DNA of 64,000 nucleotides, from positions 1 through 64,000 of the forward strand of contig CAZDOO010000001.1 of NCBI GenBank assembly GCA_964507045.1, written 5' to 3'. The notes beneath the pieces were generated by a model. It saw nothing but the letters and a program-made list of their open reading frames with translations. It ran no database searches and was not told the DNA's origin. Every line of letters starts with the position of its first letter. Positions within the stretch are counted from its first letter, which is position 1. Position numbers and translations under genes: made by a program. The DNA is from an uncultured Verrucomicrobiota bacterium (GTDB taxonomy: Bacteria; Verrucomicrobiota; Verrucomicrobiia; Limisphaerales; UBA8199). Positions 18,068 through 45,662 of this stretch are shown here, one piece after another.

Positions 18068-19597
18068 ATGGCGTTCGATTCATTCCGAGACTTTCTGAGG
18101 CAACTGGAGGCGGCCGGCGAGTTGCGGCGCATAACGGAGCCGCTGGCCACTGAGCTGGAGATCACCGAGATCGCCGACCGGGAGATGAAGAAGCCCAACG
18201 GTGGCCAAGCCCTGCTGCTGGAGAGGCCGACCGTCAAGGGGCAGGTCTCGCCGTTTCCGTTCGCCATCAACACGCTCGGTTCCTATCGGCGCATGGCGCT
18301 CAGTCTCGGCGCCGATTCGATGGAAGAGGCCGCCGCCGCGCTCGGCTCCCTCGTGAAGGCCAAGCCGCCGACCAGTCTTAAGGAAGCCCTGCACCTGCTC
18401 GGCACCGCGCTCGACCTCCGCCATGCCAAACCCAAGCTGGTGAAAGATGGCGCCTGTAAGGAAGTCATACACAGGATCGAGGCCCCGCCCACGCATACCG
18501 AGCCGTGGCCCCCAGCCCCCGACTGGCGCAATCCCTCAACCCTCAACCCTCAACCCTCAACCCTCCTCAACCTTCCCATCCAGCAATGCTGGCCGCTGGA
18601 TGGCGGGCGGTTCATCACCCTGCCGTGCGTGGTGACTAAGGACCCCGACACCGGCGAGCGTAACGTCGGCATGTACCGGATGCAGGTCTATGACGAGCGC
18701 ACTACGGGCATGCACTGGCAGTTGCAGAAGGTCGGCGCCCGGCACGGGCGGCGCTACTATGAAACCGGCACGCGCATGCCAGTGGCCGTGTTCCTCGGCG
18801 CTGACCCGGTCTATACCTTCTGCGCCACCGCGCCGCTGCCCGACGGCCTGGATGAGTTTCTGCTGGCGGGCTACCTGCGCAAGAAGTCCGCCGAGCTTGT
18901 CCGCTGCGAGACCTGCGATTTGGAAGTGCCGGCCAACGCCGACTTCGTTCTGGAGGGCTACGTGGATCCCAAAGAGCCGCTGCGGGAGGAGGGGCCTTTC
19001 GGCGATCACACCGGCTTCTACTCGCTGCCGGATCACTACCCGGTCTTTCACCTTACGGCCATCACGCACCGAAAGGACGCCGTTTATCCCGCCACCATCG
19101 TTGGCTTGCCGCCGATGGAGGACTACTACATCGGCACCGCGTCCGTGAAGCTGTTCCTGCCGATCCTGAAAATGACCTTCCCGGAGCTGGTGGACCTGGC
19201 GCTGCCGGCCGAGGGCGTCTTCCACAACCTGGTCTTCGTCAGCATAAGGAAGACCTACCCCATGCAGGCATTCAAGGTCATGCACGGCCTCTGGGGCATG
19301 GGGCAAATGATGTTCACCAAGTATATCGTGGTCGTGGATGACGACGTGGACGTGCACAACACCCGCGAAGTCCTCTTCCGTCTCTGCGCCAACACCGATC
19401 CGCAGCGCGACGCCATCTTCACCAGGGGCCCCGCCGATGTGCTCGACCATGCGACGAGCGAGCTGGGCGTCGGCACGAAAATGGGCATAGATGCCACACG
19501 CAAGCTGCCCGGCGAAGGTCACAAACGGGACTGGCCGCCGCTCATCCAGATGGACGAAAGCATACGAAAGAAGATTGATTCCCTGCTCAAGGGTTAA
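18068..19597 (+). CDS. UbiD family (prenylated-FMN dependent) decarboxylase
   Basis: N-terminus MAFDSFRDFLRQLEAAGEL, with the GPFGDHTGFY and MGIDAT motifs of UbiD. It contains an in-frame PSTLNPQPSTLL insertion from a heptamer repeat. Confidence 0.8.
   Translation: MAFDSFRDFLRQLEAAGELRRITEPLATELEITEIADREMKKPNGGQALLLERPTVKGQVSPFPFAINTLGSYRRMALSLGADSMEEAAAALGSLVKAKPPTSLKEALHLLGTALDLRHAKPKLVKDGACKEVIHRIEAPPTHTEPWPPAPDWRNPSTLNPQPSTLLNLPIQQCWPLDGGRFITLPCVVTKDPDTGERNVGMYRMQVYDERTTGMHWQLQKVGARHGRRYYETGTRMPVAVFLGADPVYTFCATAPLPDGLDEFLLAGYLRKKSAELVRCETCDLEVPANADFVLEGYVDPKEPLREEGPFGDHTGFYSLPDHYPVFHLTAITHRKDAVYPATIVGLPPMEDYYIGTASVKLFLPILKMTFPELVDLALPAEGVFHNLVFVSIRKTYPMQAFKVMHGLWGMGQMMFTKYIVVVDDDVDVHNTREVLFRLCANTDPQRDAIFTRGPADVLDHATSELGVGTKMGIDATRKLPGEGHKRDWPPLIQMDESIRKKIDSLLKG
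18533..18575 (+). repeat. (CCCTCAA)n heptanucleotide tract inside the ubiD-like gene: 4 perfect units plus degenerate ones
   Basis: ccctcaaccctcaaccctcaaccctcaaccctcctcaacc read directly. It is translated as NPSTLNPQPSTLLN. Confidence 0.9.
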
Positions 19598-19607
19598 CCT
19601 CATCCCC

Positions 19608-20588
19608 ATGCCGGCGAACCTGACACCGGAATATGAGAAGGCCGAGCGACGCTACCGGCAGGCGACGAACGACGAAGAGCGACTGGCCGGCTTGCAGGAG
19701 ATGTTCAGCACCATCCCCAAGCACAAGGGGACGGAGAAGATGCAGGCGGACCTCAAGCACCGCATTGCCCAGCTCCGCCGGGAAGAGCAGAGGACCGCGC
19801 ACAGCAAGGGCCCGGATCCGTTCCACATCCCCCGGGGCGGCGCCGGGCAGGTAGTGCTCGTCGGGCCGCCGAACACCGGCAAGAGCAGCCTGCTGGCGGC
19901 CACCACTCATGCGGCGGCGAAAGTGGCCGACTACCCCTTTACCACCGCCGTGCCGCAGCCCGGGATGTGGCACTAGGACGACGTGCAGATCGAACTGGTG
20001 GACACGCCACCCGTCACGCCGGAACATGTGCCGACCGGGCTGATGGGCACGATTCGTAATGCCGATGTGGTGTGCGTGGTGGTGGAAGCCGGCGAAACGG
20101 CGCTCGACCAGGTGGAAATGGTGCTGGCCGTCCTGAACGCGCGCGGGCTGGCGCTGCGCCCGGTGGCGCGAAATGAACTGCCGGCGGCGGATGCCAGCCA
20201 ACGGCCCGGGCTGATCGTCGCGGCCAAGTTGGACCTGGCCCCGCCCGGGGCGCTGCAGACCTTGCGCGAGCTCTACGCCAGCCGGCTGCCGACTGTGGGC
20301 GTCAGTGCGCGAGCCCGGCAGGGTTTGGACGACTGGTTCGTGCGGCTGTGGGGATTGCTGGCTATGATCCGGGTTTACTCGAAGGAGCCGGGCCAGCCGC
20401 CGGACCTGCGCAAGCCGTTCCTCATGCCATTGGGCGCGACCGTCGCGGAGCTGGCGCAACGGATTCATCGCGACCTGCCGGAGCGGATGAAGTTCGCGCG
20501 GCTCTGGGGCCACAGCCGATTTGACGGCCAACAGGTGCATAAGACCGAGCCGCTCCGGGACAAGGACGTGGTGGAAATCCACGAGTAG
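19608..20588 (+). pseudogene. DRG/Obg-like GTPase with TGS domain, interrupted by an in-frame TAG at 19974-19976
   Basis: The two ORFs 19491..19976 and 19983..20588 are in the same frame. GPPNTGKSSLL is the G1 motif. PGMWH*DDVQIELVDTPP aligns with PGVIEYKGAKIQLLDLPG, with the stop at the conserved Tyr position. A C-terminal TGS domain follows (MIRVYSKEPG...VVEIHE). The G3 (DxxG) and G4 (NKxD) motifs are degenerate. Confidence 0.6.
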
Positions 20589-43968: not shown

Positions 43969-44105
43969 TCATCGCTGAGGCTTGCTTACTGCTCCCGAGG
44001 CCAACCGGCAAAGTCTAAAGCCCAAGGCGGAACGTGGACCCGCTCACGGTCCTTGAGCGTTGAAGCAGTTGCCAAGGGCGCTTCTCTCCGTCACAGTAGG
44101 GGCGG

Positions 44106-45662
44106 ATGAGCAAGCGCTTTTACATCACGACCGCCATTGACTACGTCAACGGCCACCCGCATCTCGGCCATGCCTATGAGAAGGTGGTCGCCGACGTCAT
44201 CGCCCGCGCACGCCGCAGCCTGGGACAGGAGACGTTCTTTCTGACGGGCCTGGACGAGCACGGGCAGAAAGTCCAGCAGGCGGCACTGGCGGCAGGCAAG
44301 ACCCCGCAGGCCTACTGCGATGAACTGGCGGCGGTGTGGCGGGCGTTCGCCGGCAAGTTGGACTTGACCAACGACGACTTCGTCCGCACCACCCAGGCGC
44401 GGCATAAACAGGTCGTGCAGGCGATCCTCACCAAGCTTCATGCCGAGGGGCACTTTTACAAGGAAGCCTATTCCGGTTTCTATTCGACTCGCCAGGAAAC
44501 CTTCCTGACCCATAAAGACCGTTTGCCGGATGGCACCTTTGACCCGTCCTGGGGGGAGGTCGTGGAACTCAAAGAGGAGAATTACTATTTCAGGCTCAAG
44601 GACCACCAGCAGTGGCTGATTGATCACATCGAGCAGAATCCGTCCTTCATCAGCCCCGCGCCGCGCCGGAACGAAGTGCTCGGCTTCCTTAAGAACAACG
44701 TGCTGGAAGACCTGTGCATCAGCCGGCCCGCCTCGCGCCTCAATTGGGGCATCCCGCTGCCGTTCGATCCCGACTACGTCACCTACGTCTGGTTCGACGC
44801 GCTCTCCAACTACATCACCGTACCCGCCGCCCAGGGCGATCCCGGTGTCCCGGAACCTTTCCGCCCTCAACCCTCAACCCTCAACGCTCAACTCCCCCTG
44901 TGGCCTGCCGACATCCACGTCATCGGCAAGGACATCGTGAAGTTCCACAGCGTCTATTGGCCGATCATGCTTAAGGCGATGGGCGCGCCGTTGCCCAAAC
45001 AGGTGCTCGTCCACGGCTGGTGGCAGAAGGACGGCCAGCGGATGAGCAAGAGCACCGGCAATGTCGTGGACCCGGTCGCGGTCATAGACGAGTGGGGCGT
45101 GGACGCGTTCCGCTTCTACGTGCTGCGGGAATTGGACATCGGCCCCGACGGCAACTGGACGGAGGCTGGGTTCAGGGCGCGCTACTCGGCAGAACTGGCT
45201 AACGGCCTGGGCAACCTGGTGAACCGCTCGCTCTCGATGCTCAAACGCTACCGCAACGGCGTCGTGCCCAAGGCCTCAAACGAACTGGCGCCAGACGCGG
45301 AGAAGGCAATCGCCGAAACCCGCAGCCTGCTGGAGCAGAACCAACTCCAGGGCGCGCTCCAGGCCATTTGGTCGCTGGTTACGCGGGCCAATCAGTATGT
45401 GGACCACACCGCGCCGTTCAAACTGGCCAAGGACCCTTCCCAGGCCGCGCGCCTGGATGAGGTCCTGTATAACCTGACAGAGGTCTGCCGGATTCTCGCG
45501 GTGCTGCTCTGGCCGTTCCTGCCAGGCACGGCGGGGAAGATTTACGCGCAACTCGGCCTGCCCGGCGAGCCGGACAAAGCCTCGGCGGCGCGCTGGGGCG
45601 GACTGCCGGCAGGGCATGCCATCGGGGCTCCCGCCCCGCTGTTCCCGCGAAAGGAGACCTGA
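44106..45662 (+). CDS. metG: methionyl-tRNA synthetase
   Basis: HLGH is the HIGH motif and RMSKSTGN is the KMSKS motif. It contains the in-frame heptamer tract PFRPQPSTLNAQLP. Confidence 0.9.
   Translation: MSKRFYITTAIDYVNGHPHLGHAYEKVVADVIARARRSLGQETFFLTGLDEHGQKVQQAALAAGKTPQAYCDELAAVWRAFAGKLDLTNDDFVRTTQARHKQVVQAILTKLHAEGHFYKEAYSGFYSTRQETFLTHKDRLPDGTFDPSWGEVVELKEENYYFRLKDHQQWLIDHIEQNPSFISPAPRRNEVLGFLKNNVLEDLCISRPASRLNWGIPLPFDPDYVTYVWFDALSNYITVPAAQGDPGVPEPFRPQPSTLNAQLPLWPADIHVIGKDIVKFHSVYWPIMLKAMGAPLPKQVLVHGWWQKDGQRMSKSTGNVVDPVAVIDEWGVDAFRFYVLRELDIGPDGNWTEAGFRARYSAELANGLGNLVNRSLSMLKRYRNGVVPKASNELAPDAEKAIAETRSLLEQNQLQGALQAIWSLVTRANQYVDHTAPFKLAKDPSQAARLDEVLYNLTEVCRILAVLLWPFLPGTAGKIYAQLGLPGEPDKASAARWGGLPAGHAIGAPAPLFPRKET
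44864..44898 (+). repeat. (CCCTCAA)3 plus degenerate units inside metG
   Basis: ccctcaaccctcaaccctcaacgctcaactccccc, encoding PQPSTLNAQLP. Confidence 0.9.

Follow-up and report, generated by a model that had tools for sequence, protein, structure and literature searches.

Tandem arrays of the heptanucleotide CCCTCAA lie in frame within three genes of the 64-kb window analysed here, which is the whole stretch of 64,000 nucleotides from contig CAZDOO010000001.1 of an uncultured Verrucomicrobiota bacterium and the only source sequence used. The genes encode a UbiD-family decarboxylase, an amidohydrolase with a twin-arginine (Tat) signal and methionyl-tRNA synthetase (MetRS; metG). At the corresponding position of metG orthologues, arrays of about four tandem heptamers are found again, in one register, with a repeat unit that differs between lineages and with an encoded peptide that differs accordingly. 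The arrays are probably, on balance, heptanucleotide simple sequence repeats (SSRs) of the “long SSR” class, which occurs in large GC-rich bacterial genomes, and neither protein motifs nor recent mobile insertions. The closest relatives of the proteins encoded in the window come from metagenome-assembled genomes of the Verrucomicrobiota.

The three tracts, including the one in metG, had been noted in an original prediction made from the sequence, and both Tandem Repeats Finder (TRF) and a check of the open reading frames (ORFs) confirm them. In the UbiD-family gene (18068..19597, + strand, 509 aa), our own scan gives a perfect period-7 run of 35 nt at 18531-18565, which TRF reports as (CCCTCAA)4.7 at 18533-18565 with a 100% match. 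Degenerate units continue to 18576, and the full feature (18531..18576, + strand), including its degenerate tail CTCAACCTTCC, encodes about N155-T165 in an ORF that reads NPSTLNPQPSTLLNLP. The amidohydrolase gene (21056..22063, + strand, 335 aa), whose product belongs to Amidohydro_2, a TIM-barrel metal-dependent hydrolase family, carries (CTCAACC)4.4, the same unit in another phase, at 21087-21117 on the + strand (100% match; residues ~11-21), where the ORF reads SQPSTLNPQPSPLSRREFL. Its start codon, the ATG at 21056, is supported by a 100% identical 335-aa NCBI protein (P0241). In metG (44106..45662, + strand, 518 aa), the array (CCCTCAA)4.1 occupies 44864-44892 on the + strand with a 95% match, the fourth unit being CGCTCAA, and encodes R253-Q262 within RPQPSTLNAQLPLWPADIHVIGKDI. 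All three arrays are thus in frame within + strand ORFs, the products of which were identified by Pfam.

The dimer CCCTCAACCCTCAA, with one mismatch allowed, occurs eight times in the window and always on the + strand; shuffled sequences lead to an expectation of 0.04, and none reaches eight. The single CCCTCAA heptamer is not enriched (14 observed vs 9.7 expected). By TRF and by the dimer count, the arrays are therefore head-to-tail tandem repeats of a 5-11-nt unit beyond chance, as long SSRs are defined. Their orientation is forced, because the reverse complement (TTGAGGG)n carries TGA in 3/3 frames and (CCCTCAA)n is stop-free in every frame, as the original prediction had argued. It was also correct that a single unit more or less would put the gene out of frame, which follows from simple arithmetic, as seven is not divisible by three. 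Its proposal that the tracts are held at multiples of 21 nt fails, however, as the perfect runs measure 35, 31 and 29 nt; the reading frame is kept by the total length of the loop and not by the number of units.

Within their proteins, the arrays occupy permissive segments, namely surface loops, inter-domain linkers and signal-peptide n-regions, in agreement with the earlier suggestion that they are tolerated as short linkers. That of MetRS encodes a hypervariable coil loop between WFDALSNY and WPADIHVIGKDI, inside a 12-aa insertion relative to the Staphylococcus aureus enzyme (4qrd). In an AlphaFold model of MetRS with a mean predicted local distance difference test score (pLDDT) of 86, residues 243-269 are predicted to be almost all coil, and the ten-residue block with R253-Q262 has the lowest pLDDT of the N-terminal half (65). 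The UbiD array lies inside a lineage-specific insertion of ~24 aa relative to Escherichia coli UbiD (2idb), between the N domain and the Rift-related domain, and its tail merges into the codons of a conserved TLLNLP motif. In the amidohydrolase, the Tat-signal n-region holds the array, which lies eleven codons from the gene start and upstream of the SRREFL twin-arginine motif.

The MetRS orthologues (80-98% identity) are nearly all 518 aa long, with a hypervariable segment exactly at the position of the array. In DNA from 80 orthologous metagenome loci (~450 kb; locus labels beginning with L are ours), about four tandem heptamers are seen at this position, with units such as CTCTCAA, CCATCAA, AAATCCG, CAATCGC, GCACTCC and others. 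Written in one register, the eleven metG unit types are CCCTCAA, CTCTCAA, CCATCAA, CTCTCCA, CTCATCA, CTCCGAA, CTCCGCA, ATCCGAA, ATCGGAA, ATCGGCA and ATCGCCA; they share the pattern [C/A][T/C][C/A]NN[A/C]A, and many are one base apart. Among 60 orthologues with the long loop, self-match within the loop at a lag of seven reaches at least 15/21 in 32 and at least 19/21 in 19, and none of the lags 3-6 and 8-12 behaves in this way. Outside the loop, no 28-nt window of these genes exceeds 14, apart from one that scores 16. Within an array, the mean distance between units is 0.48, as compared with 2.48 between lineages at the same unit index, and this difference is the signature of concerted evolution. 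The encoded loop peptide is wholly different by lineage (PQPSTLNPQ, KSEIRNPKSEI, PHSALRTPHSAL or QSPIANRQSPI). As the peptide is replaced while the arrays persist, what is conserved is the periodicity of the DNA or RNA, the register and the length of the loop.

Similar behavior is seen at the other sites. For the UbiD-family gene, the window and two orthologous loci compared at the DNA level have units in the same register, CCCTCAA in the window, CCTTCAA in L201 and CCCTCGA in L202, and all of these arrays abut and grade into the conserved codons ACC CTC CTC AAC CTN CCC (TLLNLP). Further orthologues, compared as peptides (PSPLAPR), imply the unit CCCTCGC. A UbiD subclade (P0139, P0144, P0149-P0155 and others) has an unrelated insert in place of the heptamer array, ILKVGQASRLS...DRRDACPTLLNLPI, that is 13 aa longer. 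The amidohydrolase site was judged from peptides, because synteny is not conserved; the n-regions of its orthologues include QPSTLNPQPS, HQPSTINHRL, TRNTQHATRS, HRLSAIGDQ, IQNSTIKTQS and TQNPKLKTQN. Three genes adjoining metG in the orthologous loci likewise contain in-frame arrays of 4-5 heptamers at orthologous positions with lineage-specific units, which are GCGAATT, CAGAATT or CGGATTG in one gene, CCGCAAT or CGGCAAT in the second and GACACTC or CTGTCAC in the third (arrays in L143, L150, L128 and L152 at ~2150-2510, in L151 and L146 at ~2744-2835, and in L177, L195 and L139). The original prediction had set orthologues bearing PSTLNPQ, as a sign of an ancient segment, against origin from a repeat. 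This was a false dichotomy, as the segment is present in orthologues and its DNA derives from a repeat.

These arrays are old at their sites. The metG arrays are identical or nearly so between the window and L121, the window and L124, L124 and L149, and L138 and L177, despite differences at four-fold degenerate sites of 0.39-0.47 for the window against L121 and L124, 0.58 for L124 against L149 and 0.51 for L138 against L177. A recent spread of insertions, one of the readings proposed originally, is contradicted by orthologues that are 70-99% identical, differ by 0.39-0.58 at four-fold sites and yet have arrays matching in position and register. Persistence is not universal, since the periodicity has been lost in about half of the long-loop metG lineages and one subclade is without the loop altogether. 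In the latter enzymes (L142, L145, L146, L148, L150, L158, L159, L164, L175 and L199), 12 residues instead of about 29 separate ..NY from WPAD, the 17-aa loop extension being absent. In a neighbour-joining tree, these forms are interspersed among long-loop forms at 85-89% identity, which suggests repeated loss or gain, or recombination, as read from the sequences. In L195, the metG array (2753-2830) is interrupted by tandem duplications nested in it, with lengths of 9 nt (AACTCCGAT) and 11 nt (TCGCGAGCAGG); all of them keep the frame, and this site seems prone to local duplication.

Heptanucleotide arrays are also abundant in general. Across the 80 metG-orthologue loci, TRF assigns period 7 to 58 of 142 rows and period 14 to a further 18, as compared with two each for periods 6 and 8, and the copy number of the period-7 arrays is almost always 3.6-5.1. 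A scan for exact (CCCTCAA)3, with one genome per species, gave at least 120 loci (855 kb) among the matches listed, mostly from Planctomycetota, Verrucomicrobiota and Bacteroidota, with several genomes contributing at least 3-5 loci. On these listed loci, TRF returns 252 rows of period 7 against 8 of period 6 and 18 of period 8, and 131 of the 252 have units other than CCCTCAA. Period 7 is accordingly over-represented relative to its neighbours both in relatives and across several phyla, as expected of long SSRs. The modal copy number of heptamer arrays is 4-5, and among the listed matches the length of perfect CCCTCAA tracts peaks at 26-28 nt (~4 units) and not at the 21-nt minimum. Examples from other species, identified by Pfam, place the CCCTCAA array in frame in UvrA, a polyketide synthase ketosynthase, Mfd, a superfamily 1 (SF1) helicase, HypF, a P-type ATPase, the editing domain of leucyl-tRNA synthetase (LeuRS) and a class II aminoacyl-tRNA synthetase. 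Coding status was confirmed in this manner because the control by ORF length is uninformative: long sense ORFs hold 57% of arrays and 59% of random positions on the same strand, since antisense ORFs are long in GC-rich DNA. Of 53 arrays, 23 fall in the first tenth of an ORF or just upstream. The original claim of three unrelated genes is therefore confirmed for those three and understated, as the window has a fourth heptamer array together with 8-mer arrays in an exosortase gene (described below), and the phenomenon is genome-wide and found in several phyla.

Viral contigs were searched for exact three-unit arrays of CCCTCAA and of control units, giving 41 loci for CCCTCAA, 51 for CTCTCAA, 37 for CCCTACA, 11 for CCTCCAA and 6 for CTCCCAA. 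CCCTCAA is thus common but not unique among units of the same composition. In a group of related viral contigs (L268, L277, L278, L280, L283, L284, L287, L291, L297, L300 and L301), each contig has many regularly spaced copies of the control pattern (CCCTACA)3, on both strands, and these look like a distinct repeated element.

The explanation toward which we lean is that slippage gave rise to the arrays, that they are retained only when oriented free of stop codons and placed in flexible loops, that the reading frame has fixed their length and that concerted evolution keeps their units alike. Slipped-strand mispairing would make arrays of ~4-5 units throughout the genome, in a lineage with replication or repair strongly favouring steps of 7 nt. 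Genic arrays, as those described above show, survive only if stop-free in all frames and only where any peptide is tolerated. Gain or loss of one or two units would shift the frame and be purged, and array length would in this way stay frozen for long periods. Homogenisation without change of length, the pattern of which is seen in metG, could proceed by conversion between misaligned units, possibly along with exchange between arrays of one genome. A substitution in one unit would be either erased or spread to all units. Between lineages, drift of the unit would replace the whole peptide without affecting 7-nt periodicity, register or loop length.

Much of this is in keeping with what has been described for long SSRs. 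As relayed in later papers, heptanucleotides are the most abundant long SSRs, polymerase slippage has been proposed for their origin, and units in multiples of three predominate in coding regions according to genome-wide statistics (Mrazek, Guo & Shah 2007, via PMC4679880 and PMC4692102). The arrays examined here resemble those repeats in their tandem 7-nt units, in the prominence of period 7 among 5-11-nt repeats, in the many units per genome, in their scattered taxa and in a proposed origin by slippage. As far as those accounts go, they are unlike them in being in frame within conserved or essential genes with a unit that is not a multiple of three, in occupying orthologous sites and in showing concerted turnover of the unit. 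The TAACTGA direct repeats of Beggiatoaceae, cyanobacteria and Bacteroidetes, for which stop codons limit orientation in genes (MacGregor 2015, PMC4679880), and the short tandemly repeated repetitive (STRR) heptamers of cyanobacteria are also direct repeats of 2-6 copies that are found in distant phyla with stop-limited genic orientation. However, those repeats are mostly intergenic or in 5' untranslated regions and have a single favoured unit, whereas here there are many units, in genes, with evidence of orthology. Our literature search found no description of in-frame heptamer arrays at orthologous sites with turnover of the unit, and nothing specific on the exact DNA or peptide strings or on heptanucleotide repeats in Verrucomicrobia or Planctomycetes. 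Heptanucleotide long SSRs are thus known, and the retention of the same gene positions while all copies change unit together appears undescribed.

Several observations weigh against an origin by slippage followed by neutral drift of the unit. If slippage homogenised the units, it would have to pass through intermediates with one unit more or less, which is difficult to square with their lethality in an essential gene, and none of about 200 orthologues and cluster members is a length variant of plus or minus 7 aa. The arrays of the window and L124, of L124 and L149, and of L138 and L177 are identical at four-fold differences of 0.47-0.58, for which neutral drift of the unit predicts change at about 3/7 positions; such excess conservation points to the unit being constrained or to an attractor state. 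Gradual drift also does not account for the MetRS genes of L147 and L151. Their products are 96% identical and their four-fold divergence is 0.17, yet a sharply bounded loop of ~50 nt (about 3740-3795 in each) is wholly different, aperiodic in one and a perfect (AAATCGG)4.6 in the other, and the locus yielded no template of at least 12 nt that could have served as donor of the replaced L147 loop. In addition, identical units occur in 16 of 114 pairs of arrays at the same locus more than 150 nt apart (the seeded CCCTCAA arrays excluded), where 0.9 are expected and 200 shuffles give at most six. Sharing within a locus needs exchange between loci or a sequence-biased generator; that genomes have favoured units explains why three genes of the window share CCCTCAA. 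Finally, the narrow mode of 4-5 copies, whatever the unit, has no explanation under this reading.

For these features one might look to the nucleic acid itself, and a tentative alternative, appreciably less probable than slippage with concerted evolution, is that the arrays are selected elements in which a ~4-unit, 7-nt periodicity forms a structure or binding platform. The template strand might form a G-quadruplex (G4) or the coding strand an i-motif; alternatively, successive heptamers could each be bound by one domain of an OB-fold or cold-shock-type single-strand binder. Any of these could modulate transcription, translation or replication. Such selection would accord with conservation of the arrays beyond the divergence of four-fold sites, with periodicity kept while the peptide is not, and with the peak of tract lengths at ~4 units among the matches listed. 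The UbiD and amidohydrolase arrays match the motif G3N4G3N4G3N4G3 on the template strand, and CspB is reported, in a citation within PMC4679880, to bind heptamer repeats with one protein per unit. A preference for ~four units is likewise known for the GGGNATC and GGGGA(C/T)T repeats of Xanthomonas and Nostoc, the former of which adopt G4 structures in vitro (Rehm et al. 2015, PMC4692102). Those repeats share with the present arrays a heptamer with a G3 run on one strand, ~four units and inverted array pairs that form stem-loops, but they are over-represented between genes and under-represented in coding sequence, whereas 3/3 CCCTCAA arrays of the window and many others are in genes. Moreover, the window metG array has no fourth G run within 7 nt, and of 117 CCCTCAA arrays elsewhere 41 fail the four-run motif even with 10-nt flanks (76 fit it). 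As sister arrays with units free of G/C runs (AATTCTG, CAATCGC, AAATCCG and CTCTCAA) are built alike, with 4-5 copies at the same sites, G4 formation is rejected as a general cause, although it may, judging by the motif, be relevant for the CCCTCAA unit in particular. The units are also too diverse for one sequence-specific binder, the host genes are functionally unrelated, and among metG orthologues the periodicity has disappeared from about half of those with the long loop, the loop itself being lost in a subclade. A broader proposition, to which we give a similarly limited credence, is that the arrays are actively maintained and not merely tolerated. It is possible that the cell selects a ~4-unit, 7-nt periodicity in genes, to which a single-strand binder of the multi-OB-fold or cold-shock type could attach or which could act as a pausing or structural signal at domain boundaries. 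It is also possible that a dedicated process homogenises or templates arrays genome-wide, which would explain why the loci of one genome have a unit in common and why, with site and length fixed, lineages differ in that unit. If true, active maintenance would mean that essential bacterial genes are under a kind of sequence constraint that had gone unrecognised.

The remaining alternatives concern what the repeats would do, or whence they came. A unit length not divisible by three recalls the phase-variable SSRs of Haemophilus and Neisseria, which also lie inside or near the 5' ends of ORFs, and one-unit slippage might switch the genes off and on by frameshift as a form of bet-hedging. The enrichment of arrays at ORF 5' ends (23/53), with which the amidohydrolase array agrees, would suit such contingency loci, but we consider this improbable. 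The arrays have 4-5 copies only, which is low for efficient slippage; their hosts include essential housekeeping genes (metG, LeuRS, UvrA and Mfd), beside UbiD, amidohydrolase and HypF genes, and are not surface, antigen or restriction-modification genes; and copy number and loop length are constant across the orthologues and cluster members. No frameshifted allele was found at the metG array in the 80 loci and about 190 proteins, including members of 90%-identity clusters. Recurrent MetRS fragments of 254, 231, 206 and 141 aa in those clusters were considered as frameshift alleles and rejected, being C-terminal calls from broken contigs: the independent metagenome contigs of L203-L208 start within the metG array, show a scaffold gap (N) that ends in it or are chimeric there, and account in public collections for the 254- and 231-aa “proteins”. 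Population heterogeneity would be one explanation of such breaks, which fit strain-level hypervariability or sequencing difficulty and do not show on/off switching. Also unlikely, and to much the same degree, is a recent in-frame spread of a small mobile or copy-paste element to many genes. It would account for one unit in three genes within 26 kb, for units shared within a genome far above chance, for the several genomes with multiple CCCTCAA loci among the matches listed, for the interspersion of long- and short-loop metG and for the cassette-like loop replacement between L147 and L151. Rickettsia palindromic elements, which Ogata and colleagues are said to have described in 2000 as mobile palindromes of 100-150 bp inserted in frame in protein genes, offer a likeness, as they too are reportedly selfish-looking DNA tolerated in frame at surface-exposed positions of unrelated and essential genes. 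Unlike those elements, the arrays are direct repeats of ~30 nt, with no inverted structure in the coding copies, and are old at their sites. Orthologous arrays in register across deeply diverged lineages speak against recent insertion, as do the lack of terminal inverted repeats, target-site duplications and an associated transposase, the gradation of the UbiD array into the TLLNLP codons, as local duplication would produce, and the missing donor for the replaced loop. Least probable of all is that selection acts on PSTLNPQ as a favoured flexible linker of Pro, Ser, Thr, Asn and Gln, with the DNA repeat a by-product. The composition and the coil-loop location are those of a linker, and in viral contigs CCCTCAA and CTCTCAA arrays are 4-8 times commoner than two permutations of the same composition. 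However, at the same site other lineages encode wholly different peptides (KSEIRNPKSEI, PHSALRTPHSAL and QSPIANRQSPI) while the DNA periodicity persists, third codon positions are invariant inside arrays where four-fold sites elsewhere differ by 40-58%, and only about 1.3 peptide periods are encoded. Given this wholesale turnover of the peptide along with the unit, selection at the peptide level is largely refuted and was rejected.

Heptanucleotide repeats are the commonest long SSRs in many bacteria, essentially unexplained, and had been regarded as largely excluded from coding sequence. The present arrays show that they can persist for long evolutionary periods inside essential genes, with length and register fixed and with the unit, and hence the peptide, replaced jointly in all copies. 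One site followed through many lineages, with the reading frame as a length lock, represents a natural system that could serve to measure homogenisation without change of length, to test whether the 7-nt periodicity is selected and to help explain the preference for ~four units. There are practical implications as well. Because of the arrays, marker genes such as metG have hypervariable loops that differ by lineage, and metagenome assemblies are broken or joined into chimeras; alignment, phylogeny and binning could all be misled.

The window contains further tandem repeats. The exosortase EpsH gene (53047..54825, - strand; Pfam) has in-frame arrays of periods 7 and 8 inside its Pfam-matched region. 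The heptamer array (ACCACGC)4 at 54432..54463 (- strand) is in frame on the coding strand and reads TTHHAPRTT, and the 8-mer arrays are (CGTTTCAG)6.8 at 54351-54404, (TTTTCAGC)3.9 at 54586-54616 and (CAGCCTTT)4.6 at 53685-53721, all in frame in this - strand gene. In-frame arrays are hence not limited to period 7 or to CCCTCAA. Between genes, four stem-loops have arms that are tandem arrays facing their own reverse complements, with units of 7, 8 or 11 nt (the 8-mer GGAGTGAT, the 11-mers CCTCCATCCTA and TCCCCCTGTAT, and the 7-mer AACATCC). They are situated at 17928-18013, 25396-25514, 42518-42631 and 45701-45796, the last in the gap that separates the metG stop codon from the next gene, with predicted folding energies of -51, -93.5, -90 and -48 kcal/mol, respectively (z = -5 to -13). 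No Rfam family matches the arrays or these intergenic hairpins. Inverted pairs occur only among the intergenic arrays, those in coding sequence being pure direct repeats. Two tRNA genes, unrelated to the arrays, are located at 5330-5403 (- strand) and 49636-49708 (+ strand), matching Rfam RF00005 with 67.6 and 73.4 bits.

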